From a bacterium (GTDB lineage: Bacteria; Patescibacteriota; CPR2; UBA1875; CAIMLA01): a DNA stretch of 64,000 nucleotides. The stretch covers positions 66,334-130,333 of the forward strand of contig JBAXUE010000002.1 in NCBI GenBank assembly GCA_037129835.1, read 5' to 3'. The translations under genes and the position numbers were made by a program. The stretch's first letter is position 1. Every line of letters starts with the position of its first letter. The notes under the pieces are model-generated. The model searched no databases. It saw nothing but the letters and a program-made list of their open reading frames with translations, and was not told the DNA's origin. Shown here in pieces: positions 7,554 through 51,268 of the stretch.

Positions 7554-7613
7554 AATTCGTAATACGATTATAGCATAAAATAGCCTGTTGTGTCAACTTA
7601 TTTGCCTATAGCG

Positions 7614-16018: not shown

Positions 16019-16102
16019 GTCATTCTGAACCGAGTGAAGAATCTAGGATTGTATCTGGATTCCTGCTTACCGCAGGCAAGCTTCTTTCCGACTCAGGATG
16101 AC
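16019..16102. repeat. GTCATYC hairpin-repeat element (two modules in inverted orientation)
   Basis: GTCATTCTGAACCGAGTGAAGAATC at 16019, plus at 16057-16102 the reverse complement of the 46-nt module found at 19816-19861 (43/46 identical). Confidence 0.85.
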
Positions 16103-16122
16103 GATTTGGGGGTGTTAAATTA

Positions 16123-18852
16123 TTATTTTGATACTAATTTCTCTGCTACTAGTTGGGTTATTCTCTTTGGAGGTTTATTTCTAGCTTTAAATGTTTCTTG
16201 AACCAAAAGATAGAATAAAGCGATAAATATTGCTATTGCCCAGGCAGAGAAGTTAAGCGGTGCCATGCCAGCGAATTTCTGGAGAAAAGGAACGTAAATT
16301 AATAAATTTACAAACATAAAAGACACGGCCAGTCCTATCCAGACTCTTTGTGAACCAAGTAGTTTCCATACTGGTTTTCTGGCTGACCGTATAGAAAAAG
16401 CGTTGGCATATTGGCACAGGGCCATGGTGGCATAAGTGACAGTAGTGGCCGCAATATATGTTTCGTTATTCGGAAAAGCACTCCCCCAACGCCAACCATT
16501 TAGATATCCATATATGCAAAATCCCGCCACCGAAAAAACACCCAGCATTATACCACTCCTTACGATGTAGTAGATAGTATCTGTACCAAAGAGGATATCC
16601 TTTTTGTCTCTTGGCGGTTTTGACATCACATCATCCTCTTCTATATCGCCTGCAAGTGCGAGAGCCGGAAAAGCCTCTGCGCAGAGGTCGATTAATAGTA
16701 TTTGGATAACAAAAATCGGAGGCAAGCCGATAACTAGCCCAAAAACAACAGCAGTGAACTCCGCCATATTTGCAGTAAAGACATATTTTGTTGCTTTTTT
16801 GATATTGTCATAGACGATTCTGCCCTCTTTTACCGCCCAAACAATAGAAGAAAAACTGTCGTTCAGCGAAACCATTTCTGCAGCTTCTTTGGTAACATCT
16901 GTTCCTGTCAGCCCCATCGCTACGCCAATATCCGAGGTCTTTAGAGCCGGAGCGTCATTGACGCCATCGCCTGTGACCGAGACGATATTTCCATGTGCTT
17001 GTAGTACTTTCACTAGCCGCAGCTTGTGGATTGGGTCTACCCGAGAGAATATTACATCTCCAGTTTCGATAATCTGATATAGTTCATCGTCTTTCAATTG
17101 ATTTAGTTCATTACCGTCGATGACGCGCGGATCTATGTTCAGCTTGATTCTCTTACCTACGGCTGCTGCTGTCAGGCCATAGTCGCCAGTCGCCATTATT
17201 ATCTTTATTCCAGCTTCTTTAGCGATTCTGACAGTTTCTGCTACATCTTCTCTTGGTGGATCGATAATACCAAGAAGTCCTAAGAAAATCAGGTCAGAAT
17301 CGATTGTACTGCCATCCATAGGCTTATAGGCAGAGGCTATTACTCTCAGCGCATCCTTGGAATATTCGTCATTTGTTTTTTCGATATCTTTTCTATCAGC
17401 TGTAGTTAGTTCGACTGCTTTGCCACCCTTAAGTATTTTTGTACATTTTTGTAAGATAACCGCAGGCGCCCCTTTGACGTATACCGTCTTTTCACCTTTG
17501 TAGTCGACTGCCTTGGCCATGAATTTTCGTTCTGAAGTAAAGGGTATTTCCTCTACACTTTTCGCTTCCCTCTGCATCGTATAAGTATCTAGTCCTGCCT
17601 TTTCTGCTGCCACAAGCAGAGCGATCTCGGTTGAGTCACCGATATAATCTGGTTTGTGATGATTTTTTGTATCGACTTCGGCATTATTGGAAATAGTTAC
17701 AGCTTGAAACAATATATTAGTTTCATCCAGACAGCTTCTGTTGCACAGTTTTCCTTCACGGGTGATTTCCCCGTCGAGACTATATCCCACGCCCTTTATA
17801 TGATAATTTTCGTTATTAAAGTAAATCTCTTTTACGGTCATCTGGTTCTTGGTTAGGGTGCCTGTTTTGTCAGTAATGATGTAGTTTGCCTCACCTAGGG
17901 TTTCCACTGCCGAAAGTCTGCGGATAGCAGCCTTTCTTCTGGTCATTTTTTGGATGCCGATCGCAAGTGCGATAGACACCGTGGCTGGTAAACCCTCAGG
18001 GACAAGAGAAGATGCTACTCCGATGGCAAAACGAAAAGATTCTAGTGCGTCAAAGTGACCCTTTGCTACTGTATCGACTACGAGCAGGATGAGAACGACC
18101 CAGAAGGTTGCTTTGGCTACAGTCTTGGCAATCCGGTCTATCTCTATTTGTAGCGGTGATTTTGATACCTTTTGGGTCGAGGTTATTTTGGCAATTTTAC
18201 CAAAGCTAGTTTCCATTCCGGTGGATACCACCACACCGATACCGTTACCAGAGATTACGTCAGTTCCCATAAATACAGAGCCTGTTACATCGACTACGTT
18301 TCTCTCGTTCTCCTCTGTTACCATCGCTACTTTGGATTGTGTTTCAGATTCTCCTGTAAGTGCTGCATCATTCGTTTCTAACTCATTTGCAGATATTAGC
18401 CGGATGTCTGCTGGTATCTTCATTCCCTCGGAAAGAACAATAATGTCACCGGGTACGATATCCATGGCGTCGATAGTCTGGCGGTCATTGTCTCTGATAA
18501 CGGTTGCAGACTGAGCGACAAATTTCTTAAGAGCGTCTATCGCTTTATCAGCTTTGTATTCTTGGAAAAAACCAATAGTGCTATTGGCAATCACAACTAA
18601 AAAGATGACAATTGCATCTTTAGGTGCTCCTAGAATATATGCGAGACCGGCGGCCGTCAGAAGAACTATCGCTAGAAGGTCAGTGAATTGGACAAGAAAT
18701 TTGACTATATATGGAGTTCGTTTTTGCTGTACTAGCTTATTGTGGCCGTATTTATTGAGACGCGTTGTAACTTCTGCGCTCGAAAGACCTTTGTCAGTCG
18801 TCTTTAGAGTATCTAATACTTTAGTAATATCGTCATAGAGCAATGAATTCAT
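16123..18852 (-). CDS. P2-type cation-transporting P-type ATPase (Ca2+/SERCA-PMCA-like)
   Basis: TGES, PEGLPA, DKTGTLT, TGDGVNDAPAL, and 10-TM topology. Confidence 0.9.
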   Translation of the reverse strand: MNSLLYDDITKVLDTLKTTDKGLSSAEVTTRLNKYGHNKLVQQKRTPYIVKFLVQFTDLLAIVLLTAAGLAYILGAPKDAIVIFLVVIANSTIGFFQEYKADKAIDALKKFVAQSATVIRDNDRQTIDAMDIVPGDIIVLSEGMKIPADIRLISANELETNDAALTGESETQSKVAMVTEENERNVVDVTGSVFMGTDVISGNGIGVVVSTGMETSFGKIAKITSTQKVSKSPLQIEIDRIAKTVAKATFWVVLILLVVDTVAKGHFDALESFRFAIGVASSLVPEGLPATVSIALAIGIQKMTRRKAAIRRLSAVETLGEANYIITDKTGTLTKNQMTVKEIYFNNENYHIKGVGYSLDGEITREGKLCNRSCLDETNILFQAVTISNNAEVDTKNHHKPDYIGDSTEIALLVAAEKAGLDTYTMQREAKSVEEIPFTSERKFMAKAVDYKGEKTVYVKGAPAVILQKCTKILKGGKAVELTTADRKDIEKTNDEYSKDALRVIASAYKPMDGSTIDSDLIFLGLLGIIDPPREDVAETVRIAKEAGIKIIMATGDYGLTAAAVGKRIKLNIDPRVIDGNELNQLKDDELYQIIETGDVIFSRVDPIHKLRLVKVLQAHGNIVSVTGDGVNDAPALKTSDIGVAMGLTGTDVTKEAAEMVSLNDSFSSIVWAVKEGRIVYDNIKKATKYVFTANMAEFTAVVFGLVIGLPPIFVIQILLIDLCAEAFPALALAGDIEEDDVMSKPPRDKKDILFGTDTIYYIVRSGIMLGVFSVAGFCIYGYLNGWRWGSAFPNNETYIAATTVTYATMALCQYANAFSIRSARKPVWKLLGSQRVWIGLAVSFMFVNLLIYVPFLQKFAGMAPLNFSAWAIAIFIALFYLLVQETFKARNKPPKRITQLVAEKLVSK

Positions 18853-18967
18853 AAATATATTTTATGCTATATATAGATAATAATGAAGAGAAATAAATAC
18901 AAATGGAGAAGGTCCGCGCCGGGAAGACGCTTTATATAGCTACCTTCTCGTTGCGGACCTCTTGGAC

Positions 18968-19342
18968 CTAGTCTTCGACCTCATCGATCCCGAGCATCGC
19001 TCTCGCGACTTCGATATCGGGTGCCAGGTCGAAGTTGTTGGTGTACTTCACCAACTTCTTAGAGACCTTCTCGTCCTCGGGGACTACGATCACAAACGGA
19101 ATGTGATCATTCATCAGGTACCGACCAAAGCTGTAGATACGGCCGATAGCCGCGCTACAAAGCTTGGTGACCATTGCGAGGTCGAGAATGACTCCGGCCT
19201 TGCGGGCCTTTATCAGAGTCTTGTCGAACTCGAGTCGGAGAACCGGCTCGACACTGTCGTCGAGATTTCCTCCGAGCTTCAGGATCACGGCCTTGTGGCC
19301 GTTACCTGCTTCGAACTTTTCGATACTGTGTACACAATGCAT
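18968..19342 (-). CDS. STAS-domain protein (anti-sigma-antagonist fold), in G+C-rich islet
   Basis: 124 aa with the pattern VILKLGGNLD...EPVLRLEFDKTLIKARKAGVILDLAMVTKLCSAAIG typical of SpoIIAA/STAS. G+C clearly above its neighbours. Confidence 0.6.
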   Translation of the reverse strand: MHCVHSIEKFEAGNGHKAVILKLGGNLDDSVEPVLRLEFDKTLIKARKAGVILDLAMVTKLCSAAIGRIYSFGRYLMNDHIPFVIVVPEDEKVSKKLVKYTNNFDLAPDIEVARAMLGIDEVED

Positions 19343-19351
19343 ATATCCCCC

Positions 19352-19666
19352 TCAGTCGGTTTCTAGTATTGCCGGGTTTTCGGAAAAGAACCATGAACCC
19401 CACAGCTCTCTCTTGACACCTACTTGCAGCGAATGTACCCACATTCCCCCTATGGGGATTTCGAAAGAGGGAAAGAAATCGAGTTCGATCTCTCCCTGCC
19501 AAACCACTTTCTCACGGTCAACGATATCGTAGATGACAAGTGAGTCACCGGTCTGGAGCAAGTGCAGGCCATCATAGCCGCCTTGCCTTCCTTCTTCTTC
19601 GAAGGCCCAGAAACCTCCTTCGGTTCCGGTCTCGAAGTAGAAATGTAACGTACCCACAAGTTTCAT
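19352..19666 (-). CDS. hypothetical protein (104 aa), in G+C-rich islet
   Basis: ATG at 19666 is preceded by GGGAGGTGA. The longer listed ORF (to 19768) lacks an SD. There is a 9-nt gap to the STAS gene. Confidence 0.55.
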   Translation of the reverse strand: MKLVGTLHFYFETGTEGGFWAFEEEGRQGGYDGLHLLQTGDSLVIYDIVDREKVVWQGEIELDFFPSFEIPIGGMWVHSLQVGVKRELWGSWFFSENPAILETD

Positions 19667-19759
19667 GTGGCTCACCTCCCAAACGATGTTATCGTGATTG
19701 AGACAAAGAGGATTATACAACATAATGAGTGTTCTGTAAAGATAAACATATACTCCCCA

Positions 19760-19861
19760 GTCATCCATGGCCCGCTTTCGTCATCCTTGCGAACGCGAGG
19801 GTCTCTTTTGGCAACGTCATCCTGAGTCGAAACGAAGCTTGCCTGCGGTAAGCAGGGATCC
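19760..19861 (+). repeat. three tandem GTCATCC modules
   Basis: GTCATCC starts at 19760, 19780 and 19816. The last module contains the hairpin CCTGCGGTAAGCAGG. Confidence 0.85.
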
Positions 19862-20234
19862 ATGTCCACTCTCCTTATCGTTCGAATTCTAATGAGAACT
19901 ACAGATACAGGTTATATGTAGTTTTCATAGGATCTACGTAATCCAACCATCAGTTCGAAAAGAAAGAGAGTAAAGTAACGAAGTTATAATAAATAACTTC
20001 CGGTATCGGCTTGTTGTTATTTATTATATTTGAGCTACTGCAACGAATGATACTTTAAAGAATCTGTTAGGTTGGGCTTTTTGCACCACTTTTATTAAAA
20101 AAGTGGCATATATTATAATATAACGTTTAAAAGATATTCGCTAAAGTCGTAATTGCTCGACCTCGAAGATAGTCGAGTACACGGTACCAAGGCGATTTTT
20201 CATTGGGATTAACGCTTAAATATACCGCCCCTTT

Positions 20235-20330
20235 GTCATCCCTGGTCGCACTTGTCCTCCAGTAGCTTGTTAGCGAAGTAGGAACCCCAGTCTGCCCGAG
20301 CCGTACGCTCGTGTCGGCCAGGGGGATCTC
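20235..20330 (+). repeat. GTCATCCCTGG...CCAGGGGGATCTC module with ~55-nt insert
   Basis: Same ends as the short modules at 21275 and 34750-34779. The internal AGTAGC..GCGAAG..AAC resembles 21328-21343. Confidence 0.75.
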
Positions 20331-21254: not shown

Positions 21255-21274
21255 AATTACTTTTCCTCTCCTGT

Positions 21275-21343
21275 GTCATCCCTGGCCACAAACCAGGGAT
21301 CTCCTGCTTATTGTTCGAAGATCGGCAGTAGCCGAAGCGAGAA
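21275..21343 (+). repeat. GTCATCCCTGGCCACAAACCAGGGATCTC hairpin module plus tail
   Basis: 6-bp stem CCCTGG/CCAGGG. Near-identical copy in reverse orientation at 34750-34779. Confidence 0.85.
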
Positions 21344-22356: not shown

Positions 22357-22431
22357 AGTAAGATTATATATGGTTTATGGTTTAGTGTCAACTATAAACT
22401 ATAAACTATTAATCAAATAATATTTCTGGTC

Positions 22432-33109: not shown

Positions 33110-33137
33110 TTGACAACTAAAATACGCGGAGTATAAT
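33110..33137 (+). promoter_or_regulatory. consensus sigma-70 promoter (TTGACA-16 nt-TATAAT) facing away from the Z1 operon
   Basis: Exact -35 (33110-33115) and exact -10 (33132-33137) hexamers on the + strand in a non-coding gap. Confidence 0.6.
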
Positions 33138-34702: not shown

Positions 34703-34779
34703 GGAGGTCATCCTTACGAAAGTAAGGATGACCTCCGGAGGGTAAGAAAGAGATCCCTGGGTTTGTGACCAGGGATGAC
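34703..34779. repeat. two GTCATCC hairpin modules
   Basis: GGAGGTCATCCTTACGAAAGTAAGGATGACCTCC (14-bp stem) and GAGATCCCTGGGTTTGTGACCAGGGATGAC (reverse copy of the 21275 module). Confidence 0.9.
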
Positions 34780-34976
34780 AACGGGTGTTCCCACGAAAAA
34801 TAACTCAGTCCGCAGACCGACACTTTGAGAAATATGTATGCTGTAGCTCGGCTACTAAAAGTATTTTTAAAAGAGAGTTGTTATTTTTCTTGAACTTAAC
34901 TCCATTTTCTTTCAAGAGAAAATGGATAATAAATAATTAATAAATTTTTAGTTAGAATAAATTGGTATATTGCGAA

Positions 34977-35546
34977 TTAATGTCCGCCGTAGACAGTGAA
35001 GCCTTTTTGTTTTAGCTCTTCGGCGAGCTTTATCTCGGCCTTTTTTGCTTCTTCTCTATTTTCTATCTTTCCTATCTTGCCGTAGAGGTCTGGGCGGAGC
35101 TTTGGATTGTCTGCCTTTCGGACCTTTACTGATGAGTTCAGCCCTGCCATGTGTTGCTCCAGTCGTATTTCTGGATCATAGATACTTTGCCCGATATATA
35201 TTTTCTTCTCGTTGTTATCTAGTTCGATAGCATATACTTGCCAAAAATCATTCTGGACCATGGGTCCAGCGATAACCATATATTTTTTTGCTTCGAGAGC
35301 GACGATAACCGCTTTTGCGGCCTCTATCGCCTCTTCGGCAGTATCATACTCTGGTAATTCTTTTGTCCATTTGGTCAGATTAGCGGGGTGACGTTCTTTG
35401 CGAACGCTAGTCACAAACTTTTCAAAGGCTTGCTGGTGATTGCTCGTGCCATATCCGACAAATACTTTTTTCTTACCTTGGTCTATTTCAAATACGTTTA
35501 CTATGTATTTATTATCTTCCATTTTTTTGGTCTCCTGTAGCGTCAT
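34977..35546 (-). CDS. GIY-YIG-like domain protein
   Basis: The C-half WQVYAIELDNNEKKIYIGQSIYDPEIRLEQH fits GIY-YIG spacing. The N-half has no assignment. Confidence 0.5.
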   Translation of the reverse strand: MTLQETKKMEDNKYIVNVFEIDQGKKKVFVGYGTSNHQQAFEKFVTSVRKERHPANLTKWTKELPEYDTAEEAIEAAKAVIVALEAKKYMVIAGPMVQNDFWQVYAIELDNNEKKIYIGQSIYDPEIRLEQHMAGLNSSVKVRKADNPKLRPDLYGKIGKIENREEAKKAEIKLAEELKQKGFTVYGGH

Positions 35547-35577
35547 TTTACTCCTATTTTGTGCTTAGAGCAAGGGA

Positions 35578-36651
35578 TTATTTATCCCAAACGCAGCTAC
35601 TCCCAAAGTGTCCGTGCTTTGCGGTTTCTAGATACATTGGCTTTTTTAGTTTTAGAAAACTGATGATTCCCCGAGGGGTCAAGTCGTACTCGTTCGATCC
35701 CAGTAGGTTTACCTCGGTTCTGTTATCAATAATAGCGATGGCCATCACCGGCTCTGCGACACCGATACTATAAGCAAGCTTCACGAGCACTTCATGGGCA
35801 TTTTCTTTGCGGAGATAGTCTACGGCGATACGGCGCGCCATATAGGCAGCGCTTCTGTCTACCTTCGTGGCGTCTTTGCCACTAAAACAGCCACCTCCTA
35901 TGGGAATCTGAGGACCGTAATTGTCTACTGCTAGCTTGCGACCGGTGAGACCAGTGTCGGCGGTAAAGCCTCCTACTACAAATTCCCCTGTCGGGTTAAT
36001 GTGAATATGTTTTGGTTCAAGTGTTTCCGCTAATATTCTCAGGGGTGTAAAGTCTGCGCCTTCAAGATGCTGGGCACTGATGACTACTGTGTCTACTTTA
36101 CCATTTTCACCCAACGTTACTTGACTTTTCGCATCTGGACCGAAACCTTTCGGTAAATTCTTCATCAGTTGTCTGGCTAAATATAGCTCCTGCGGGATCA
36201 TTTCTTCGTTTTCATCGCAGGCATATCCGACCATGATTCCTTGGTCCCCCGCCCCACCAGTATCTACTCCTTGGGCGATTTCTGGGCTTTGATGAACGAT
36301 ATTTATGTGTATCTCGAGTTCGTCAGAATATCCGATTTCTGAATAAATATTTTGTACAATATTTTTGACGTCTACTTTTGCACATGATGTCACTTCTCCG
36401 GTGATATATATGTGCCCATGACCTCCCATCGTCTCTATCGCTACCCTACTTTCTGGGTCTTGTCTTAGATATTCGTCTAGTAATCCGTCGGATATTTGGT
36501 CGCAGACTTTATCGGGGTGTCCAGGGCTGACGCACTCGGCTGTCCGTATCCCCTTCTTGCTATAATATTCTACTTTTTCTTTTCGCGAGTTTATCGCCGT
36601 CATCGCTTCTTTCACTACTTCCTCCTTTGTCTTACCATGGGTATCGATCAT
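35578..36651 (-). CDS. metK: S-adenosylmethionine synthetase
   Basis: GHPDKVCDQISD, GAGDQGIMVGYA, GGGCFSGKDATKVDRSAAY. Confidence 0.95.
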   Translation of the reverse strand: MIDTHGKTKEEVVKEAMTAINSRKEKVEYYSKKGIRTAECVSPGHPDKVCDQISDGLLDEYLRQDPESRVAIETMGGHGHIYITGEVTSCAKVDVKNIVQNIYSEIGYSDELEIHINIVHQSPEIAQGVDTGGAGDQGIMVGYACDENEEMIPQELYLARQLMKNLPKGFGPDAKSQVTLGENGKVDTVVISAQHLEGADFTPLRILAETLEPKHIHINPTGEFVVGGFTADTGLTGRKLAVDNYGPQIPIGGGCFSGKDATKVDRSAAYMARRIAVDYLRKENAHEVLVKLAYSIGVAEPVMAIAIIDNRTEVNLLGSNEYDLTPRGIISFLKLKKPMYLETAKHGHFGSSCVWDK

Positions 36652-43945: not shown

Positions 43946-44752
43946 TTATAAAACTTTTAATTCTTTCGCACGCTTTATTTGAGAAATATCTTCTGGTATT
44001 TTCCCAGCTAGAGAGTTTCCTTTAAATGATTGAATAATCCTAACTTCTTCAATATCAATATCGACTCGACTGGTAGAGGCTAATACCAGTCCTGGTTCTC
44101 TGATTGTGCCTTTTGACGGACCACCCGTGATAAAGCATTTTCTAGCATCCATAATGATGAGATCTGGTGTATAGATAGTATTCATCTCAGCGACTTTCTC
44201 GGATACTTTGCCGAGATGTAGACTGATTCTCTCTGTTGGCTTCATAAAGCCAATAATAATCTTCAGTGCACCGGTAAAGTCAGCGATAAAGTGGGTTTTG
44301 CAGCAGGGCAAGAGAATAATCTTGTCTACTTCATCCATGATCTTTGGCACTGATACTTTCTTTAGATATTTTCCTTCTGGGATTTGTTTTGTCACCCACT
44401 GATGGTCATCAAAAATGTATATATCCGGTGGTGTCTTGGATTTCTGCAGGTCATAGACACATGCCTTGCACAATGTCTTTTCTGTTGATATAGAGTGATT
44501 ACTGATAGTAAAAGTTGAGCTCTCGCCCACTATCACCCTTTTGGCTCCAGCTGCGAAGACGAGCTCGACAGTAGCTGCCAAGAAGTCTGGTGCTGTCGAT
44601 GCCGGTGATTCATCCGCGGTATTGTAGTTGGGCTTTATTAGTACAGTCTCACCTTTTTTAACGAAATTATCAAAACCACCAATTTCATCAACTGCTTTTT
44701 GAATTGATGGCTTAATATCTTTTTCTGCTTTTACCTTGGCTATATGCATCAT
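43946..44752 (-). CDS. DUF362-like protein
   Basis: GETVLIKPNYNTAD and RVIVGESS match the DUF362 N-terminal pattern. Confidence 0.6.
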   Translation of the reverse strand: MMHIAKVKAEKDIKPSIQKAVDEIGGFDNFVKKGETVLIKPNYNTADESPASTAPDFLAATVELVFAAGAKRVIVGESSTFTISNHSISTEKTLCKACVYDLQKSKTPPDIYIFDDHQWVTKQIPEGKYLKKVSVPKIMDEVDKIILLPCCKTHFIADFTGALKIIIGFMKPTERISLHLGKVSEKVAEMNTIYTPDLIIMDARKCFITGGPSKGTIREPGLVLASTSRVDIDIEEVRIIQSFKGNSLAGKIPEDISQIKRAKELKVL

Positions 44753-44765
44753 AATTTTTTTATCC

Positions 44766-46043
44766 TTATCTGATTATGTCTTCCATCCCATGTTTTAAAA
44801 GTAATCTAATGAACTCCCCAGAGGTAAATATCTTTGCGAAGTTTGGTCCACTAGCGGTAAGGTCCGCACCTTCTTTTTCTGAGAGCAGCTTAAGTAGCGC
44901 TTCGGCTTCTTCTGGGTCAACGATATTTTCTACTGAGTGTGAGCTTTTCCCTCCGATTTGAATAGCTGATTTTCTTCTTTGTTTTCTTGTTTCTGACATG
45001 TAATAATCAGTCATAAATTTATCATAGTCTGGGTCCATCATAGATACCTCTCGATAGATTCCTTCATTGGTTAACTCAGTCATTTCTTCATTTATCTCAT
45101 ATCCGGTCATCATGACAGTGTCGCCTTCACTATTATCTATCCTGATTCTCCCACCCAAAATCTTAACAGCATATCCGTCTTTTAGTGTTCCGTCTGGTTT
45201 TAGTAGCCTTTCTTTGTAAAAGTTTTCAACTCTAGTCTTGAACTCGGCATTCTGCTTATAATGATTGTTATTTTTGATAAAACTGTTTATCAGCTGTCTT
45301 TCGAAATTAGCTATTATCACTTTTGCTAGTCTATCTTTTTCTTCTGGGTCGGTTACTAACTCTGGCTTTGACTCTAGGTGAATATATTCATGAGACAGTG
45401 TATGTGATACATCAAGTAGCTTCATTTGTCGTATTTGCTCTGGTGTATGAATAGCTGTGATCTCTGGGCTCTCAAACTGATATGAAAATTCCTGCATATT
45501 CTTTTTTACGTCTGCATAAGTCATATATGCCTTACCGTCCTCGACGAAGCTAGTAGTGGCAAATACATAATCTTTTCCTGGTTCTAGGTACATGGTGAAT
45601 TCAAATTCGTCCTTAAGAATCTTTTGTAGATCTTTTGTTTCAGTAGAACGACTGTCAGATTCTTTCTTTTCTATTACTTCGCCGTCCACTATTTCGAATA
45701 AATCGGCTGAGAAATCTGCTGCGATATCTGGGACAATTTTTTCCATTGCTTGTTTTACAGATATAGATGCTTCAGCTATCAATGATTGCATAACAGGGAT
45801 AATCTCTGCCTTTTCTTTCTCAATATCTCGGGTCATCTCATTAGCTTCATTTATTTGATCAATACTGTCTTGAGACCCCTTGGGGTCGTTCTCACGGTGT
45901 TTTGTAAAAAATCCCTCTGCTCTTGAGTAATCTTCTGTGCTAGGCAATGTAACATTGCGATCACTCGCTATTGCTTCTGCAATTTTCTTTACTACGAGTC
46001 CTTCTTTGTAGGCTTCGTCGTTGCTAAGTCTTTCTGGTGTCAT
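44766..46043 (-). CDS. hypothetical HExxH protein (425 aa)
   Basis: HTLSHEYIHLE motif. Acidic N-half, no signal peptide. 13-nt gap to the DUF362 gene. Confidence 0.55.
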   Translation of the reverse strand: MTPERLSNDEAYKEGLVVKKIAEAIASDRNVTLPSTEDYSRAEGFFTKHRENDPKGSQDSIDQINEANEMTRDIEKEKAEIIPVMQSLIAEASISVKQAMEKIVPDIAADFSADLFEIVDGEVIEKKESDSRSTETKDLQKILKDEFEFTMYLEPGKDYVFATTSFVEDGKAYMTYADVKKNMQEFSYQFESPEITAIHTPEQIRQMKLLDVSHTLSHEYIHLESKPELVTDPEEKDRLAKVIIANFERQLINSFIKNNNHYKQNAEFKTRVENFYKERLLKPDGTLKDGYAVKILGGRIRIDNSEGDTVMMTGYEINEEMTELTNEGIYREVSMMDPDYDKFMTDYYMSETRKQRRKSAIQIGGKSSHSVENIVDPEEAEALLKLLSEKEGADLTASGPNFAKIFTSGEFIRLLLKHGMEDIIR

Positions 46044-46168
46044 ATTATTCTTCCCTTATTATCAAATATTACCTCAGTTAGTTGTTGTAAACAACCTTAG
46101 TTTACAAAAGTTCGGAGCCCAAGATCGGGCCCCATTAGGGTGCCGTCCATGGGCTCATATTGTTCTAC

Positions 46169-46492
46169 TTACTTCTTCTCGAAGGCTGGTGGTTTTACCC
46201 ACACACCTCTTTTGCGAAGTAGCTTATAGAAACCTTTTAGGATATCTTGGTATTCCGACTCTACAGTCGAAATGTTGAGCTGTTGCCAAGCCTCCTTTAG
46301 TTCTCGATACGAGATGTTGCTCGCTAGTGACTTCCACTGGTCTTGAGCCCCAAAGTAGAAGATATAGCTACTAGGGCCGCATCGCTTTCCGGTGATGTGT
46401 ATCACTATTTCTCGACGACGATTCGACTTGCATAAATAGACTTTGACACAGTTGTGTCGAAAGCATCTGCCGATAAAGCCAAGCTTACTCAC
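46169..46492 (-). CDS. hypothetical protein (107 aa), in G+C-rich islet
   Basis: GTG at 46492 is preceded by GAGGAGGA plus 6 nt. Followed by hairpin GGGCCC/GGGCTC plus a U-rich tract. Confidence 0.5.
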   Translation of the reverse strand: MSKLGFIGRCFRHNCVKVYLCKSNRRREIVIHITGKRCGPSSYIFYFGAQDQWKSLASNISYRELKEAWQQLNISTVESEYQDILKGFYKLLRKRGVWVKPPAFEKK

Positions 46493-46533
46493 GATGGGTC
46501 CTCCTCTCACTAGGGGCAGATTGTGCGACTACT

Positions 46534-46650
46534 CTAGCTGCGGTGCTTCTTCTTCCCTTTTCTTGGGTGAGCAGCAGTTACGGCCTTGCCACAACCTCTG
46601 GCGCAACATTTCCTGCAACGCCGCAGATCCTTTTCGTTACAGATTCGCAT
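46534..46650 (-). CDS. candidate 38-aa Cys/Arg/Lys-rich peptide MRICNEKDLRRCRKCCARGCGKAVTAAHPRKGKKKHRS
   Basis: ATG at 46650 is preceded by GGGGGGAG plus 5 nt. Putative promoter TTGCTC-17-TATTAT upstream. 41 nt upstream of the 107-aa ORF. Confidence 0.4.
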   Translation of the reverse strand: MRICNEKDLRRCRKCCARGCGKAVTAAHPRKGKKKHRS

Positions 46651-46863
46651 GCTCGCTCCCCCCGATAGTAATGGATACCAGACTAGGTGATAATATACTA
46701 AAATATTTGTCAGAGCAAGGTAAATCTGCTCAAAATTAATTAATAATTGTAAATATATTTTGTAATATGCGGCCATTTTCTTTGCATAAAGCCACAAAGG
46801 TTCTCTCAGCTTTTGCTCAGATTTGATGTATACAATATAGATGTCATTTAAACAAGGAAGGAG

Positions 46864-47142
46864 ATGAATGACAAAACCTGGCGAGTAGTGATCGCCGCTA
46901 TCAAGACTTGGCGCCACTGGAGGACACGAATTTCACAAAGAGTTGGTGCTAGTGTGTCGCAAAAGTCGGATAGCAAATACAGTTCAGGGCTAGAAGTACA
47001 TATTCTCAGCTCGGGCAGGGTCACGAAAACCACCACAACTAAATATATATTTTTCATTCCACTCAAAATAATAGAGGCCATCCCCCGGCCTCTATTATTA
47101 TTAATATCAATAATGCAAAAAGCCATCGTTTGGGAACGATAG
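46864..47142 (+). CDS. doubtful ORF (92 aa) in G+C-rich islet
   Basis: AAGGAAGGAG lies right before the ATG, with TTGCTC-17-TATAGA upstream. However, the ORF runs through a strong hairpin (47073-47093) and its C-half is low quality. Confidence 0.25.
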   Translation: MNDKTWRVVIAAIKTWRHWRTRISQRVGASVSQKSDSKYSSGLEVHILSSGRVTKTTTTKYIFFIPLKIIEAIPRPLLLLISIMQKAIVWER

Positions 47143-47269
47143 CTTCCATAGGCATTCCTCTCTGTTGTTGGAATAATAGATGGTTTGCTGTTTGGTCGAA
47201 GTCCTCTGCGATATTACTCGCTCTCTCACCTACTGGTGAGACCCATGGGCTCCATTGTTGCGGTGTTGA

Positions 47270-47500
47270 CTAGCTTGGGAATTTGATTCGCTTGCCAATT
47301 TTTTCGGCTCTTACTGCCTTAAGGAATTCTTCGGGTTCTATCCCAAAGTGCTCCGAGAGCCAGTTTTGAACCTCACAGAGGGCGTAGTTGCGTTCCCACA
47401 ACGTATCTCCTCTAAAGGACTGTGAAGCCAAAGCGATAACCTCCGCTCTGCTAAAACTGTCATAACCGTCTTTGTTGGTACTGTTACTCCCTTTCTTCAT
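47270..47500 (-). CDS. hypothetical protein (76 aa), in G+C-rich islet
   Basis: ATG at 47500 is preceded by GGAGA plus 5 nt. No family recognised. Confidence 0.5.
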   Translation of the reverse strand: MKKGSNSTNKDGYDSFSRAEVIALASQSFRGDTLWERNYALCEVQNWLSEHFGIEPEEFLKAVRAEKIGKRIKFPS

Positions 47501-47631
47501 GATTGTCTCCAATCGCTAAACGCTGGTTTGATCCAACGCTGTCGTCTTATGAACGACAAGAACTGATAGGACTTAACACAAACGATATTATAGTCATTTA
47601 ACGGGGTTTTGTCAATAAGCATCAATAATAA

Positions 47632-47664
47632 AGCCGAGGTGATCTTTCCCCCTCGGTTTTATTT
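47632..47664 (-). terminator. intrinsic terminator of the ABC operon (bidirectional shape)
   Basis: CCGAGG...CCTCGG stem flanked by an A-run and a T-run, starting about 10 nt after the ATPase stop. Confidence 0.7.
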
Positions 47665-47672
47665 AATGGTAA

Positions 47673-48554
47673 TTATTTTGCTACTTTGCCGTCGACTATC
47701 GTGATCGTACGAGTGCAGAGTTTGGCCACTTCTGGATTATGGGTAACAATTATAAATGTCTGCCCGTGCTGATTGAGTCGAACTATAAGATCCATTATTT
47801 CTTTGGTCATTTTGATATCTAGTTCTCCTGTAAGCTCATCACCAAATATAATTGCTGGTTTATTTACTAGAGAGCGAGCTATTGCTACTCTCTGCCGTTG
47901 ACCGCCCGAAAGTTCGTTTGGAGTGTGAGTAAGTCTATCTCCAAGCCCCACAAGCCTTAACGATTTTTCTGCAAGTGCCCTTCGTTCGTTTCTCGGAGTT
48001 TTTCCATAACGGAGTGGTAGCATCACATTTTCTATGGCTGTCAGCGTTGGAATCAGATTGAAAGATTGAAAGACAAAGCCGAGCTCGCTAGATCGGACTT
48101 CTGGTAGTTTGTTTTGACTAATTCCAGTAACATTGACGCCTCGTAGAAATATCTGCCCAGTCGTTGGCTCGTCTAGAAGGCCTAGCATATTTAAAAGAGT
48201 TGATTTCCCAGAACCAGATGGTCCCATAATAGCAACCATCTCCCCCTTTTTAATATCTATGTCCACGCCATTTAGGGCATGGACAACAACCCCTTTTTCA
48301 TTTTTGCCTTCTTTTATTTTTTTACCCGTTAGAAAATGATAAGTTTCGACGTATTTTTCTTTATCAAATAAATCTTGTGCTTTTTCTAGTCTTATCTCAA
48401 TTTCAGAAATTTTTTCAGTATTATTCTTTGAAACTGCTTTTTCATAAGCATGATGAAGTTTGTGGATTGCTTCCTGGGCCTTTATTGCCACCTTCTTATT
48501 CCCCATAATGTAAACCTTGCGAAGGTTATTAAGCTTTAGAATAGTATCGGCCAT
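47673..48554 (-). CDS. ABC transporter ATP-binding protein (MacB/LolD type) with ~65-aa N-terminal insertion
   Basis: GPSGSGKST, LSGGQRQR, IIFGDELTGELD. A helical insert lies between the first beta-strand (ILKLNNLRKVY) and VHALNGVDIDI. Confidence 0.88.
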   Translation of the reverse strand: MADTILKLNNLRKVYIMGNKKVAIKAQEAIHKLHHAYEKAVSKNNTEKISEIEIRLEKAQDLFDKEKYVETYHFLTGKKIKEGKNEKGVVVHALNGVDIDIKKGEMVAIMGPSGSGKSTLLNMLGLLDEPTTGQIFLRGVNVTGISQNKLPEVRSSELGFVFQSFNLIPTLTAIENVMLPLRYGKTPRNERRALAEKSLRLVGLGDRLTHTPNELSGGQRQRVAIARSLVNKPAIIFGDELTGELDIKMTKEIMDLIVRLNQHGQTFIIVTHNPEVAKLCTRTITIVDGKVAK

Positions 48555-48556
48555 GA

Positions 48557-49711
48557 TTATTCCTCCCTCAGTGATTTAACAATACTGATTTTCACCGCAT
48601 AGTAAGCGGGGTAAATACCCGCAATTACGCCGATGGCGAGCGAGAATATCATTGAACCGATAAGTAACCTAGGAGTGAGTAAAAATATCTTGTCCCCAGT
48701 CTGCTCCATATAATAGTTCACTAAATATACAATAACAGCTCCAAGGGCTATCCCGATGGCGCCACCAAAAAATCCGATAACGCCAGCTTCTGTAAGATAT
48801 TCGAGTAATATATTGCGGTTTTTTGCCCCTAGAGCTTTCTTTATCCCTATTTCCTTAGTTCTTTCTGAAATTGACATCGTCATGGTATTGACTATTGATA
48901 GCGTGCCAACAAGAAGTGAGATGATACAAATTCCGTAAATAATTGAGTTAAAAGTTTGCATTGTAGATGCTATTTGGTCTTGAAATTGTTTCGGTCCAAG
49001 AGTATCAACGCCTTTGACCTCTTTCTTTATTTTTTCTGATAATTTATTTGGGTCTACACCTTTTTTAGGATAGGCAATAAAGCCATAAACCAGATCGTCT
49101 GGTTTCGTAGTATTTCTAAGTAATTCGGGTAATTCATTGTACATTATTTCTCTACCATCATGTAAAGAGACGGATATTTGAGTATCAGGTAGAGTGAAAG
49201 TTTTTTCGGCAATGCCAACAACTTCAAAATTTTTACCTCTAATTTTGATATTTTCTCCCACCTTGGCTTTTAGTTTTTTTACTAGGTCTGCGCCGACCAA
49301 TGCCTTGTTACGGTCTGAAGCAGTAATAGCTCGCCCACTAGTAAGTCTAATTTTAAAGCTTTCGTAATCGTTGGATTTTTCGTCAATGCTAATAATGTTT
49401 GCTAGTGGTCCAAGACTAGCAGTGATGTTATCACTAAGTAGTGAATAAGTTTCGGCCGCTACATATGCGACGCCATCGACTTTTTCTATTTCTTTTTTCT
49501 TATCAATCTTTAATGGGCTACTATATGTACTTATTTTGGCAGATATTTCTACTTTGTCCTTATAATATTCTGCCCCTCCATCTACAAGCAAACTCAGTTT
49601 CTCGGCGATAGCTCCCATAACCACAAGGGCCAGGATACCGATGGCGATACCAAAAACCGTCAGTAGTGTTCTGGTTTTTCGTCTCCACATATTTTTTAAG
49701 ATTTCAAACAT
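48557..49711 (-). CDS. ABC transporter permease, MacB/FtsX-like
   Basis: N-terminal TM, periplasmic MacB_PCD-like domain, and a C-terminal FtsX 3-TM bundle (ERTKEIGIKKALGA). Confidence 0.85.
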   Translation of the reverse strand: MFEILKNMWRRKTRTLLTVFGIAIGILALVVMGAIAEKLSLLVDGGAEYYKDKVEISAKISTYSSPLKIDKKKEIEKVDGVAYVAAETYSLLSDNITASLGPLANIISIDEKSNDYESFKIRLTSGRAITASDRNKALVGADLVKKLKAKVGENIKIRGKNFEVVGIAEKTFTLPDTQISVSLHDGREIMYNELPELLRNTTKPDDLVYGFIAYPKKGVDPNKLSEKIKKEVKGVDTLGPKQFQDQIASTMQTFNSIIYGICIISLLVGTLSIVNTMTMSISERTKEIGIKKALGAKNRNILLEYLTEAGVIGFFGGAIGIALGAVIVYLVNYYMEQTGDKIFLLTPRLLIGSMIFSLAIGVIAGIYPAYYAVKISIVKSLREE

Positions 49712-49762
49712 TTAATTCCTTATGATTATGAAAATATTTTAACATAATTATGAATGATAAAT

Positions 49763-49816
49763 AATAAAAAGAAAAGGCCCGCACTAGGGTAGGTGTGAAC
49801 CTTCTCTTTGCGGGCC
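49763..49816 (-). terminator. intrinsic terminator closing G+C-rich islet 3
   Basis: 8-bp stem GGCCCGCA/TGCGGGCC followed on the - strand by TTTTCTTTTTATT. Lies 13 nt after the stop at 49829. Confidence 0.7.
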
Positions 49817-49828
49817 GTTGTGTCTTGT

Positions 49829-50191
49829 TTAGAACAGGGAGGGCTGGTCTTTCCCAGCAGCATCAGACGTATCTGATACTTGCAGTTTGTCGATAGGTCC
49901 CTTTGGAAACCTCTCGACAAACTCCTCGAGATTACTGTCTTGCACCAACCAGCTCTGTTCTATCTTGCGATTGAACTTCCTACTCAGTGCATTGCTGATG
50001 ATGTGTGAGAAGTTCACAGTAGTAGTGAACTCCCGGGGACGAGCGTGCCACGCGTCGTGTTGCTTCTGCGTGACATAGATACCGACACTCAAGCCGGCGA
50101 CCTTGAATACCCCGATGTAGGGGCAATTGGGTCTGGTGACCTTCATTTTTGTTACATCTGTAGTGCTAGTGCGTTTGGCCAAGCCAAACAC
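49829..50191 (-). CDS. hypothetical protein (up to 120 aa), in G+C-rich islet
   Basis: GTG at 50191 abuts the upstream TGA (possible coupling). An alternative ATG is at 50146. No family recognised. Confidence 0.45.
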   Translation of the reverse strand: MFGLAKRTSTTDVTKMKVTRPNCPYIGVFKVAGLSVGIYVTQKQHDAWHARPREFTTTVNFSHIISNALSRKFNRKIEQSWLVQDSNLEEFVERFPKGPIDKLQVSDTSDAAGKDQPSLF

Positions 50192-50196
50192 CCCCT

Positions 50197-50550
50197 TCAG
50201 TTTAGTGAGATGTACAGGTCGGTTCTTGCTCTTTCAGGTTCGTGCCGGGCTGCCATAAAGAGTAAAACAATCGCTCTTCTGCTGGCCAAAACCAGTGTTT
50301 CAGGATCTTTGGTTGTTGGGCCGAAGCAACCGCTTTCGATGTACTCGATCTGATCGCCGATAATCTCAGCAATCGTGATCATGTCATCGGGCACTTGATA
50401 ATGTGCCGCGAAGTTTAGTACCGCCTCTCTTTGGACAGAAGCCGTTAACAGTACAGTAATACTGAGTTCAGGCTCGAGACCTAGATCTTCACAGCGTTGA
50501 ACTAGCATGTCTTGGACTGCCCCAAGTATTAGTGTGCTTAAAGCCGCCAT
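50197..50550 (-). CDS. hypothetical protein (117 aa), in G+C-rich islet
   Basis: ATG at 50550 is preceded by GAGGGGA plus 6 nt. The listed 5' extension lacks an SD. Confidence 0.5.
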   Translation of the reverse strand: MAALSTLILGAVQDMLVQRCEDLGLEPELSITVLLTASVQREAVLNFAAHYQVPDDMITIAEIIGDQIEYIESGCFGPTTKDPETLVLASRRAIVLLFMAARHEPERARTDLYISLN

Positions 50551-50640
50551 TGACAATCCCCTCGTTTCTAGACGAATTGTGTAGGTACAATGTAAATTAC
50601 TATACCACTTTATGGTATATTTGTAAAGCATGATTTACGC

Positions 50641-50670
50641 AAAAAACAGCCCTAAGTCGGGGCTGTTTGT
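50641..50670 (-). terminator. intrinsic (bidirectional-shaped) terminator
   Basis: AAAAAACAGCCC-TAAGTC-GGGGCTGTTTGT. On the - strand the stem is followed by TTTTTTG. Confidence 0.7.
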
Positions 50671-50842
50671 AATAAATTGCAGGTTGAGCCGCACTGTAGG
50701 GTAACAGTAGTGCGCGGCTTTGCCCATAGGCGAATCCTCTCTCATGAAGGGTTGTGGTATCTTACTTGAGTTATTGAGATTGACCTAATCCCAGAATCAA
50801 ACTGTTTCCAGTTACCCTTGATTCTGAGTGCAGAGTTTTGGG

Positions 50843-51118
50843 TTATCTTTTTTGGAAGAAGACTTTGCGACCAAGGTCCTGTGGTTTACAAACGGCCCAG
50901 AAAAGACTAAGTCCCATCTCGGATAAACCAAGAAGGTCATCTAGTAATTCTGGGTTATTCCATCGAACCTCTTTGCCGGCATACTTCTTGAGTAGTTCGT
51001 CGACGTCCCTGATATTTTGGTCTCTTTCGATTTCACGCCGTTGTTCTTCAAGGTCTACTAAGACCTCAATGTGATACCCATTACGCTGCAGAGCTTGTAA
51101 AAGAGCTAATTGAGTCAT
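50843..51118 (-). CDS. hypothetical protein (91 aa), in G+C-rich islet
   Basis: ATG at 51118 is preceded by AAGGGAG plus 5 nt. No family recognised. Confidence 0.5.
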   Translation of the reverse strand: MTQLALLQALQRNGYHIEVLVDLEEQRREIERDQNIRDVDELLKKYAGKEVRWNNPELLDDLLGLSEMGLSLFWAVCKPQDLGRKVFFQKR

Positions 51119-51268
51119 AAAGACTCCCTTCGTTTGACAGCACTTCGCAATATTGCGGAGTAACTGCATCATCACGTTGCCGCGACTCATGTGCGGTATT
51201 ATACTCTTTTTTACCTATATGTCAAGATAATTTACTGTTACAAGTTTTTGTTATAGGAATAGGTTGCT

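Follow-up and report, generated by a model that had tools for sequence, protein, structure and literature searches.

What does a short, GC-rich islet between two operons of an uncultured bacterium amount to: one imported cassette, a relic of a mobile element, an artefact of assembly, or small genes of its own kind? CPR bacteria (Patescibacteria) have small genomes, in which a large fraction of the genes falls in no known family. In the 64-kb stretch of DNA analysed here (the window), a gap of 1.6 kb separates an ABC-exporter operon from a gene for a 425-aa protein. The islet at positions 46090-47560 had been originally predicted to be a single, self-contained cassette of small genes. The features found there are listed in Table 1, and the ORFs, the AT-rich spacer (46700-46860), a promoter, a terminator and the strong hairpin of the original prediction are all present.

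The islet is probably best explained as two separate transcription units rather than as one cassette or a recognisable mobile element. Unit A would span 47615 to about 47065 (minus strand) and comprise a perfect sigma-70 promoter, a gene for a 76-aa protein, a folded 3' RNA and two terminators. Unit B, also on the minus strand, would run from about 46700 to 46105 as a bicistronic message for a 38-aa and a 107-aa protein with a terminator of its own. The DNA between the two would consist of a near-neutral non-coding stretch and an AT-rich promoter spacer. A single cassette does not survive the comparison of lineages, in which the islet splits into a part common to all three (about 47612-46789) and the variable unit of the 38-aa and 107-aa genes.

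Table 1. Features of the islet and its upstream edge (window coordinates; a dot marks features given no strand)
Feature	Position	Strand	Remarks
Intrinsic terminator, ABC-exporter operon	47623..47656	-	CCGAGG...CCTCGG then T-run; upstream edge of the islet
Sigma-70 promoter of 76-aa gene	47587..47615	-	perfect TTGACA-17-TATAAT
76-aa gene	47270..47500	-	ATG start, GGAG SD 6 nt upstream
Structured 3' region of 76-aa transcript	47112..47269	-	hairpins H1, H2 and H3
H1	47242-47225	-	hairpin in 3' region of 76-aa transcript
H2	47221-47208	-	hairpin in 3' region of 76-aa transcript
H3	47145-47120	-	terminator-like, then UUUUU
H4	about 47066-47099 (arms 47067-47079, 47087-47099)	-	13-bp perfect stem, loop GGGGGAT, then UAUUAUUUUG
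Near-neutral non-coding stretch	46864..47072	.	overlapped by plus-strand ORF 46864-47142 and minus-strand ORF 46848-47126
AT-rich spacer, presumed promoter region of 38-aa/107-aa operon	46700..46860	.	GC 0.29
38-aa gene	46534..46650	-	ATG start, GGGGGAG upstream; product MRICNEKDLRRCRKCCARGCGKAVTAAHPRKGKKKHRS
107-aa gene	46169..46492	-	GTG start, AGGAGG SD
Intrinsic terminator, 38-aa/107-aa operon	46105..46134	-	stem kept in L007, loop changed; local folding z -5.5

Authenticity and origin of the locus

The DNA of the gap is genuine and stems from an uncultured member of the Patescibacteria (CPR), whose MetK shares 74-77% identity with its counterparts in Saccharibacteria and Patescibacteria MAGs. 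The gap recurs with 100% identity in at least 4 independent assemblies made from different samples by different pipelines (ENA, Logan, JGI), as well as in additional contigs. The source samples are from a lake and are represented by the ENA assemblies ERZ27300174, ERZ27300155 and ERZ27299960, by run SRR7053572 and by JGI 3300021473 and 3300021601. Because the sequence is identical in these independent assemblies, the islet is not a mis-join, which answers the question of chimerism that the original prediction had raised. The terminator that closes the ABC-exporter operon is kept in two related contigs, L007 and L009, and a different terminator takes its place in a third, L008.

A rise in GC within an AT-rich genome and the inconsistent calls among gene callers would be expected if the islet were an assembly chimera or held non-coding RNA genes only. 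This reading is extremely improbable. Both junctions, like the sequence, are the same across the independent assemblies. As for RNA genes alone, the islet has neither Rfam nor tRNA matches, the part of it with the highest GC, 46300-46850, has a folding z of about 0, and three of the ORFs carry an excess of synonymous substitutions.

Composition

The original prediction placed sharp switches in composition at 46.09 and 47.56 kb. GC is indeed raised (0.447 over 46090-47560 versus 0.390 for the window), but the rise is modest and uneven, and the oligonucleotide signature is that of the host. At the scale of the islet, its GC has a z of 1.9 and ranks 18 of 626; its sub-blocks have values of 0.48, 0.29, 0.45 and 0.46; and at least 6 other sites in the window are equal or higher, including 18844-19921, 35526-36214 and 49739-50619. 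The tetranucleotide distance (z 0.76) and the dinucleotide delta* (z -1.1) are both typical of the host. Codon usage departs further: GC3 of the three minus-strand genes is 0.51-0.55 (0.53 for the 76-aa gene, 0.55 for the 38-aa gene), compared with 0.347 +/- 0.06-0.09 for the host, and codon log-likelihoods of the islet genes are 0.00 and -0.16, against 0.31 +/- 0.09. The GC excess would then arise from the GC-rich third codon positions of these three genes, from hairpin stems and from the non-coding DNA at 46860-47270 (GC 0.45). Such values indicate a foreign origin only weakly, and it is unproven in view of the host-like oligonucleotide signature and the host-type promoter of the 76-aa gene.

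Three small genes and their orphan status

Three small minus-strand ORFs, of 76, 38 and 107 aa, have the substitution pattern of real protein genes that belong to no known family. Their dN/dS values lie between 0.13 and 0.32, with a synonymous excess at P 0.003 to 0.023. This purifying selection, together with the presence of a promoter and terminators, bears out the original prediction that the small genes are real and carry expression signals of their own. The "very strong SDs" attributed to them hold for the 107-aa gene alone, with AGGAGG; the GGAG of the other two is an unremarkable SD in this genome. One of the three genes under purifying selection, the 38-aa gene, was called by none of the gene callers or pipelines, which matters for the annotation of tiny ORFs in CPR genomes.

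The expectation that the proteins would resemble no known family was likewise borne out, since Pfam, PHROG, PADLOC and NCBIfam gave no match to any islet ORF, and PDB gave none for the islet either. A word-indexed search of 5.8 billion proteins and an exhaustive HMMER search of 1.84 billion representatives returned only relatives of 84-99% identity; one extra match, to an EF-hand-repeat protein, was spurious. The homologues of the 76-aa protein, at 96% and 88% identity, come from the same clade only. Paralogues of the islet genes were found neither in the window nor at the loci of distant Patescibacteria, and a scan of GTDB genomes with the 425-aa protein gave no match. By these searches, the islet genes appear to have no homologue beyond a narrow clade. 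Peptide-pattern scans of IMG/VR, and blastn and tblastn searches of GenBank phages and PLSDB plasmids, were also empty. One sequence, L042, which came from two IMG/VR DNA motif scans, proved to be a chance match with no further similarity.

Unit A

The consensus promoter of the 76-aa gene is of a kind that occurs 5 times in the window, against 0.05 expected, each time upstream of a gene, and L008 has TTGACA-17-TATAAT at the same position. The gene has a dN/dS of 0.14 relative to L007 and of 0.26 relative to L008, with a synonymous excess of P ~0.01 in each comparison. Its product is predicted to form three helices and to be near-neutral (pI 7.9); the AF2 model has a pLDDT of 60.

Just after the stop codon, the transcript would fold into a multi-hairpin RNA with an MFE of -71.7 kcal/mol (z -4.75; sliding-window z -4 to -6). 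This folded region shows 0 differences from L007 over about 200 nt; its flanks differ by 3-10%. The window and L007 also share an identical ABC operon, so a recombination tract, and not selection, could account for part of this lack of differences. In L008, H1, H2 and H3 are kept, and the changes fall in loops or turn a U-A pair into U-G, with three weak internal pairs broken; H4 has two compensatory double changes (G-C to A-U and U-A to A-U). H4 adds a further intrinsic terminator, one that is largely bidirectional.

A multi-hairpin region right after a stop codon, two terminators made of a stem and a U-run, and substitutions between lineages that are loop-only or compensatory are all features shared with structured 3' UTRs and the small RNAs derived from them, and the terminators recall tandem terminators. 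Unlike known 3'-UTR-derived small RNAs, the Unit A RNA has no Rfam family, and its conservation is known from three close lineages. Rfam 15 at gathering thresholds gave 0 matches over the entire window, and at E <=10 on 45900-47800 the best sub-threshold match was Thr_leader (26.7 bits versus 55), a terminator look-alike. The 3' RNA may act as a tail that stabilises or terminates the Unit A transcript, or may be a 3'-UTR-derived small RNA.

The DNA between the units

Gene callers disagree over the stretch at 46864-47072, and two gene-calling pipelines chose an ORF there that shows no purifying selection. The stretch is 89.5% identical to L007, and substitutions are spread evenly over the codon positions of both overlapping ORFs (6, 6, 7 for the plus-strand and 6, 7, 7 for the minus-strand ORF). 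The plus-strand ORF, which had been called doubtful from the start, was rejected as a gene: its dN/dS is 0.65, codons 1-30 alone have a pN/pS of about 0.7, and in L008 it is frameshifted and shortened to 40 aa. The minus-strand ORF, with a dN/dS of 1.22, was rejected as well. The adjoining AT-rich spacer is 96.7% identical to L007 and so more conserved than its flanks. Its promoter-like matches are weak and lie on the plus strand, and homology with L008 stops within it, at about 46789.

Another reading of Unit A is a type I toxin-antitoxin system. Here the toxin would be a hydrophobic 30-aa ORF (47063-47155, minus strand; MPMEAIVPKRWLFALLILIIIEAGGWPLLF) with its SD and AUG sequestered, and the antitoxin a convergent plus-strand RNA from the spacer. 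The ORF has a tail resembling a membrane helix, its SD and start fall within predicted helices, L007 has an in-frame 3-nt insertion, and the hairpin is bidirectional. However, the L008 version (MPMEAIVPKRWLFALYKIETGGGLYMSF) lacks the hydrophobic tail, and the ORF has a dN/dS of 0.92, spans the H3 terminator and has no SD match; nor is there a convincing conserved promoter on the plus strand. Judging from the L008 sequence, this reading seems already largely refuted, and we consider it highly improbable. An RNA like those of type III toxin-antitoxin systems is excluded because there are no tandem repeats.

Unit B

The 38-aa and 107-aa genes lie on the same strand, 41 nt apart, with one terminator downstream. 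The 38-aa peptide contains five cysteines (C4, C12, C15, C16 and C20) and has a net charge of +12, a pI of 10.7 and a GRAVY of -1.21. Relative to L007, its gene has 4 synonymous and 2 non-synonymous changes, for a dN/dS of 0.13 (P = 0.023, on six substitutions in all), and every cysteine is retained.

Ribosomal protein bL36 is a small, basic, zinc-binding protein of 37-38 aa with the pattern CxxC...C...H. The 38-aa peptide is like it in length, in its strong basic charge, and in having a CxxC motif and additional Cys/His residues without a signal peptide; it is unlike bL36 in the spacing of its cysteines, in its restriction to one lineage group and in its place within a variable, non-ribosomal operon. 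No bL36 match to the peptide appeared in Pfam or NCBIfam, even at E 0.1 to 1.

The product of the 107-aa gene (dN/dS 0.32) is also basic, with a pI of 9.9 and a charge of +13, and is predicted to have four beta-strands followed by three helices. Its three N-terminal cysteines are not conserved. Codons 8-26 form a hyper-divergent patch (26% divergence) in which dS rises along with dN (omega 0.49); the raised dS favours recombination over positive selection as the cause. PDB sequence searches of the Unit B products were empty, and the structure model of the 107-aa protein gave weak matches to single-stranded nucleic-acid-binding folds of the PUR-alpha, Whirly and PC4 type (beta-beta-beta-beta-alpha). 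Our best guess, which leans on these predicted properties and folds, is that the Unit B products bind nucleic acid as small regulators or form an addiction-like pair, in which case both basic proteins would act jointly through nucleic-acid binding.

A stricter version of the second idea is a toxin-antitoxin or addiction pair in which one product neutralises the other, the pair being kept by post-segregational or anti-phage selection. Like type II toxin-antitoxin operons, Unit B consists of two small genes that point the same way and lie close together, with a promoter region and terminator of its own and a presence that varies between strains; its codon usage is atypical, and the hyper-divergent patch recalls the swapping of specificities. 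Unlike them, it has no sequence or profile similarity to such systems (no toxin, antitoxin or defence model matched in Pfam, NCBIfam, PADLOC or PDB), its first gene, at 38 aa, is below the typical size of an antitoxin, and both products are strongly basic, while the omega of the patch suggests recombination. Such a pair is unlikely.

The charge and the five cysteines of the 38-aa peptide, and a MacB_PCD/FtsX permease and ABC ATPase 1 kb away, could also suggest a leaderless secreted or antimicrobial peptide exported by this neighbouring MacB-type system, with the 107-aa protein providing immunity or acting as a partner. In addition, neither the ABC operon nor Unit B is present on contig L008, although this is a single observation. 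The peptide has no leader, no signal and no hydrophobic or amphipathic segment. Unlike leaderless bacteriocins with a dedicated ABC exporter, it is cationic but hydrophilic, and the exporter, which has no peptidase domain, belongs to a separate operon with its own terminator, and Unit A and three terminators stand between it and Unit B. In L008 the two absences are distinct events, one on each side of the retained Unit A, and the ABC genes are present in L009, which belongs to that lineage. An exported peptide is therefore very unlikely.

Variation among lineages

Three lineages were sampled: that of the window, that of L007, and that of L008 and L009. Unit A is in the same place in all three, and L008 retains 47612-46789. 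Beyond this, the 38-aa, 107-aa and 425-aa genes are replaced in L008 by a hairpin and a gene for a 237-aa LTXXQ protein, followed directly by the DUF362 gene, so that Unit B is missing jointly with a gene from outside the islet. The replacement gene ends in a second, similar copy of the H4 hairpin. The window and L007 have the same ABC operon sequence, while their islets and 425-aa genes have diverged by 2-15%. As to whether the islet is conserved core DNA in relatives, a point on which the original prediction was to be judged, the answer is mixed: Unit A is kept in close relatives, but in Patescibacteria further removed, no part of the islet was seen beside the 425-aa homologue. These comparisons of sequence indicate that Unit B and the adjoining 425-aa gene occupy a strain-variable, recombination-prone slot, and the islet as a whole has the look of an ordinary strain-variable accessory spot. 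Its genes may have been acquired through recombination with related CPR populations of somewhat higher GC.

In another reading, the islet would be a decayed, integrated mobile element (a phage, plasmid or other) that has lost its mobility genes and left its small genes behind as cargo (morons). The raised GC and GC3, the orphan genes, the near-neutral DNA at 46864-47072 (GC 0.45), which resembles a dead gene, and the location in a hot spot for gene gain and loss would all fit. As originally predicted, there is no integrase or transposase (none among ORFs of at least 30 aa in 44500-49500, and no Pfam, PHROG or NCBIfam match for the islet ORFs), and ARAGORN found no tRNA or tmRNA in the 64-kb window. 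Comparisons with IMG/VR, GenBank phages and plasmids showed no similarity in either DNA or protein, the tetranucleotide and dinucleotide signatures are those of the host, and Unit A keeps its position in 3 of 3 lineages. The sole flanking repeat, the 10-nt GAGCCCATGG after the stops of the 76-aa and 107-aa genes, was rejected as an att-like site; it is at chance level (2 matches with <=1 mismatch, versus 1.65 expected) and incongruent with the L008 breakpoints. A decayed element has, in our estimate, a low probability.

The preferred reading, two units in an accessory spot, has parallels elsewhere. Flexible islets of orphan small genes are common between conserved genes in bacterial populations. 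Like them, the islet lies between conserved genes, has its content swapped between close lineages, shows mosaic divergence, and carries family-less genes of somewhat atypical codon usage with no mobility genes. It is unlike them in that every sampled lineage carries Unit A, whose promoter follows the host consensus, in its host-like oligonucleotide signature, and in its length of just 1.6 kb. The locus thus displays mosaic recombination and gene replacement at the level of strains in an uncultured CPR population.

It is unlikely that something more novel is present, whether Unit B as a two-protein CPR system not seen before (serving, for instance, addiction, defence or host interaction, and diversified by recombination), the four-hairpin RNA as a new functional RNA working with the 76-aa protein, or both. 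Otherwise, there is no sign of a new mechanism; the suspicion of a foreign cassette or chimera is mainly cleared, and a clean map of genes and RNAs has been gained. In a hypervariable patch at about 49830-50040, which was considered as the variable region of a DGR and rejected, the substitutions are of all types.

Two units of different history

The islet lies between an ABC-exporter operon and the gene for a 425-aa protein; six public contigs encode this protein. Three independent assemblies reproduce the entire 1629-nt gap of the window at 100% identity: a 372-kb contig from ENA, an assembly of a second ENA sample, and a Logan assembly of SRR7053572. Additional JGI and ENA contigs also carry the islet sequence. 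Thus, a mis-join is excluded, and the islet is not a chimera. MetK of the window is 74-77% identical to that of MAGs labelled Candidatus Saccharibacteria or Patescibacteria group, indicating that the host is a CPR bacterium.

Two related lineages were recovered beside the window strain: contigs L006, L007, and L011, collinear with the window from 51207 to 45435, and contigs L008 and L009, whose DNA is ~84% identical. L007 matches the window without a difference over the ABC operon and most of the upstream DNA, and differs from it by 2-15% from ~47800 across the islet and the 425-aa gene; this pattern is a recombination mosaic. L008 retains just 47612-46789, which corresponds to Unit A (promoter, 76-aa gene, and folded 3' RNA). 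Downstream of ~46789, the 38-aa and 107-aa genes of Unit B and the 425-aa gene are all replaced by a second copy of a GGGGGA-loop hairpin and, on the opposite strand, a gene for a 237-aa LTXXQ-repeat protein, directly followed by a DUF362 gene. Thus, the islet, originally predicted to be a single cassette, comprises two units with separate histories. Among the relatives compared, Unit A is present in all three lineages, Unit B is replaced in L008, and no islet lies near the 425-aa homologues (38-41% identity) of more distant Patescibacteria, whose neighbours differ.

The best-supported picture has two small-gene units, each autonomous, in a slot that varies among strains and is prone to recombination; in it, Unit A is fixed across the clade and has a strong promoter, and Unit B is accessory and moves together with the 425-aa gene. 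The locus adds one more case to a familiar class, that of orphan small genes occupying a flexible slot in the genome of a CPR bacterium, here with a conserved RNA tail rich in terminators; no evidence points to a system of a new kind. Overall, the original observation was confirmed in part and its interpretation partly supported.

L008 also lacks the ABC operon, which is present in L009; upstream of Unit A, a small-gene terminator (window ~49815-49770) is fused straight to a TTGACA-17-TATAAT promoter. The absence of both this operon and Unit B would fit export of the 38-aa cationic peptide by the neighbouring MacB-type ABC system. However, this co-absence is one observation, the peptide is hydrophilic and leaderless, and the two are separate operons.

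Genes and products

Coding was assessed by Nei-Gojobori counts between lineages, with P for synonymous excess. Support was obtained for the 76-aa gene (dN/dS 0.14, syn:nonsyn 5:3, P 0.0098 against L007; 0.26, 8:9, P 0.012 against L008) and, against L007, for the 38-aa gene (0.13, 4:2, P 0.023, all five Cys kept) and the 107-aa gene (0.32, 15:19, P 0.003). A pure RNA islet is likewise excluded. In the 107-aa gene, divergence is 26% at codons 8-26, where dS (0.55) and dN (0.27) are both raised, and 7% in the remainder. These codons are a further tract of recombination, not a clear case of positive selection.

The plus-strand ORF, already considered doubtful, indeed does not behave as a gene (dN/dS 0.65; substitutions by codon position 6,6,7); in L008 it is frameshifted to 40 aa. 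Even over its first 30 codons, pN/pS is ~0.7. Also rejected were a minus-strand ORF (dN/dS 1.22) and a 30-aa hydrophobic ORF (0.92), whose hydrophobic tail is gone in L008; L008 thereby contradicts a type I TA based on the latter. Automated gene callers were inconsistent: two assemblies have the plus ORF called, others have the minus ORF, and none has the 38-aa gene. In NCBI, the 107-aa ORF is listed as a MAG hypothetical protein.

As predicted, the products resemble no known family: there were no matches in Pfam, NCBIfam, PHROGs, PADLOC, PDB sequences, IMG/VR, GenBank phages, or PLSDB plasmids, and no relatives outside the clade among ~15 billion proteins. The architecture of Unit B fits a type II TA-like pair, but homology to one is absent. 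Charge and a weak fold signal allow the guess that the pair might bind nucleic acid.

Expression signals and the folded RNA

The predicted ORFs, 41-nt gap, AT-rich spacer, hairpin, promoter, and terminator are all found in the sequence. Perfect TTGACA-N16-18-TATAAT sites number five in the window versus 0.05 expected by chance, and the host clearly uses canonical sigma-70 promoters. The claim of very strong SDs holds for the 107-aa gene (AGGAGG) only; the 76-aa and 38-aa genes carry GGAG, common among host genes. Elsewhere, the motif TGTCATCCCTGGYCRCA occurs in three copies, in both orientations, near gene ends; it is a possible REP/MITE-like or regulatory element.

From the 76-aa stop codon (47270) to 47069, the window and L007 show zero differences, compared with 3% and 10% in the flanks. 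The 218-nt minus-strand RNA has an MFE of -71.7 kcal/mol (z -4.75 versus dinucleotide shuffles), and sliding-window z is -4 to -6 at 46950-47350 and ~0 over the GC-richest coding part. When the window and L008 sequences are folded independently, four hairpins recur in both; weaker internal helices have three pairs broken in L008. The region, which has no Rfam match, can be read as a folded 3' tail carrying tandem terminators, possibly with a further role, for example as a candidate 3'-derived small RNA.

Features of the islet and its surroundings (window positions unless stated)
Feature	Position	Strand	Detail
Sigma-70 promoter	7567-7596		perfect consensus
Sigma-70 promoter	22363-22391		perfect consensus
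Sigma-70 promoter	33110-33137		perfect consensus
Sigma-70 promoter	47615..47587	-	TTGACA-17-TATAAT; drives Unit A
Sigma-70 promoter	51198-51225		perfect consensus
TGTCATCCCTGGYCRCA copies	20229-20250, 21274-21294, 34760-34785
Inverted repeat	16047-16103, 19815-19871		57 nt, 88% complementary
P-type cation ATPase gene	16123-18852
ORF-poor stretch	18844-19921		GC up to 0.55
425-aa gene	44766-46043	-
Islet terminator	46134..46113
Block	46090-46700		GC 0.48
Block	46700-46860		GC 0.29
Block	46860-47270		GC 0.45
Block	47270-47560		GC 0.46
Minus ORF	46848-47126	-	rejected
Plus ORF	46864-47142	+	rejected
30-aa ORF	47063-47155		rejected
H1	47242-47225		L008: loop change only
H2	47221-47208		L008: loop change only
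H3	47145-47120		then UUUUU; L008: one U-A to U-G
H4	47098-47066		then U-rich tail; L008: two compensatory pairs (G-C to A-U, U-A to A-U)
ABC ATPase and MacB/FtsX permease operon	47673-49711		missing whole from L008 (1-215); short TTTATTATT repeats at both edges
Second GC-rich gap	49739-51268		GC 0.45, peaks 0.53
Hypervariable ORF	49829-50146	-	~105-117 aa
144-aa orphan	50197-50631
115-aa orphan	50843-51190
237-aa gene	L008 1113-1826	-

Base composition

The predicted sharp switch in composition is a real shift (44.7% G+C versus 39.0% for the whole window, SD 0.045 in 300-nt windows; flanking genes, 0.38-0.39), but a modest one with uneven blocks. Ranked against all 1471-nt windows of the sequence (n=626), the islet has z 1.9 for GC (rank 18), 0.76 for tetranucleotide distance (rank 92), and -1.1 for dinucleotide delta* (rank 554), and GC is as high or higher at several other sites, including ordinary genes such as metK. 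By oligonucleotide signature, the islet is no outlier. Its GC rise is explained by gene GC3 (0.51-0.55 in the three supported genes versus 0.347 +/- 0.06-0.09 in equal-length host gene chunks), hairpin stems, and the near-neutral non-coding 46860-47270. Host-codon log-likelihoods of these genes are low (0.16, -0.16, and 0.00 versus 0.31 +/- 0.09). A decayed mobile-element remnant would agree with the elevated GC3 and with a GC-rich spacer that evolves near-neutrally, but mobility genes and att sites are lacking, no similarity to phages or plasmids was found, and the oligonucleotide signature is not foreign.

Neighbouring features

The second GC-rich gap, upstream of the ABC operon, carries two orphan small genes (GC3 0.44-0.46) without Pfam matches. 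Beside them, an orphan ORF, also without a Pfam match, is hypervariable in its C-terminal half (~49830-50040): the window and L007 differ by 55 substitutions/400 nt with zero indels and the frame kept, and are otherwise identical for kilobases either side. The patch looks like allele replacement via recombination; a DGR was rejected because the substitutions involve all base types.

The 425-aa protein is family-less, and its HEYxH (H218, E219, H222) and GYExNEE motifs are invariant in four equal-length Patescibacteria homologues, which suggests an undescribed zinc-metallopeptidase-like family. The 237-aa protein of L008 has a signal-like N-terminus, two repeats with LTEAQ/LTEDQ motifs, and a weak Spy/CpxP-like NCBIfam match (E 0.014). 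Far from the islet, the inverted repeat encloses the P-type cation ATPase gene together with the ORF-poor stretch, the GC-richest part of the window.
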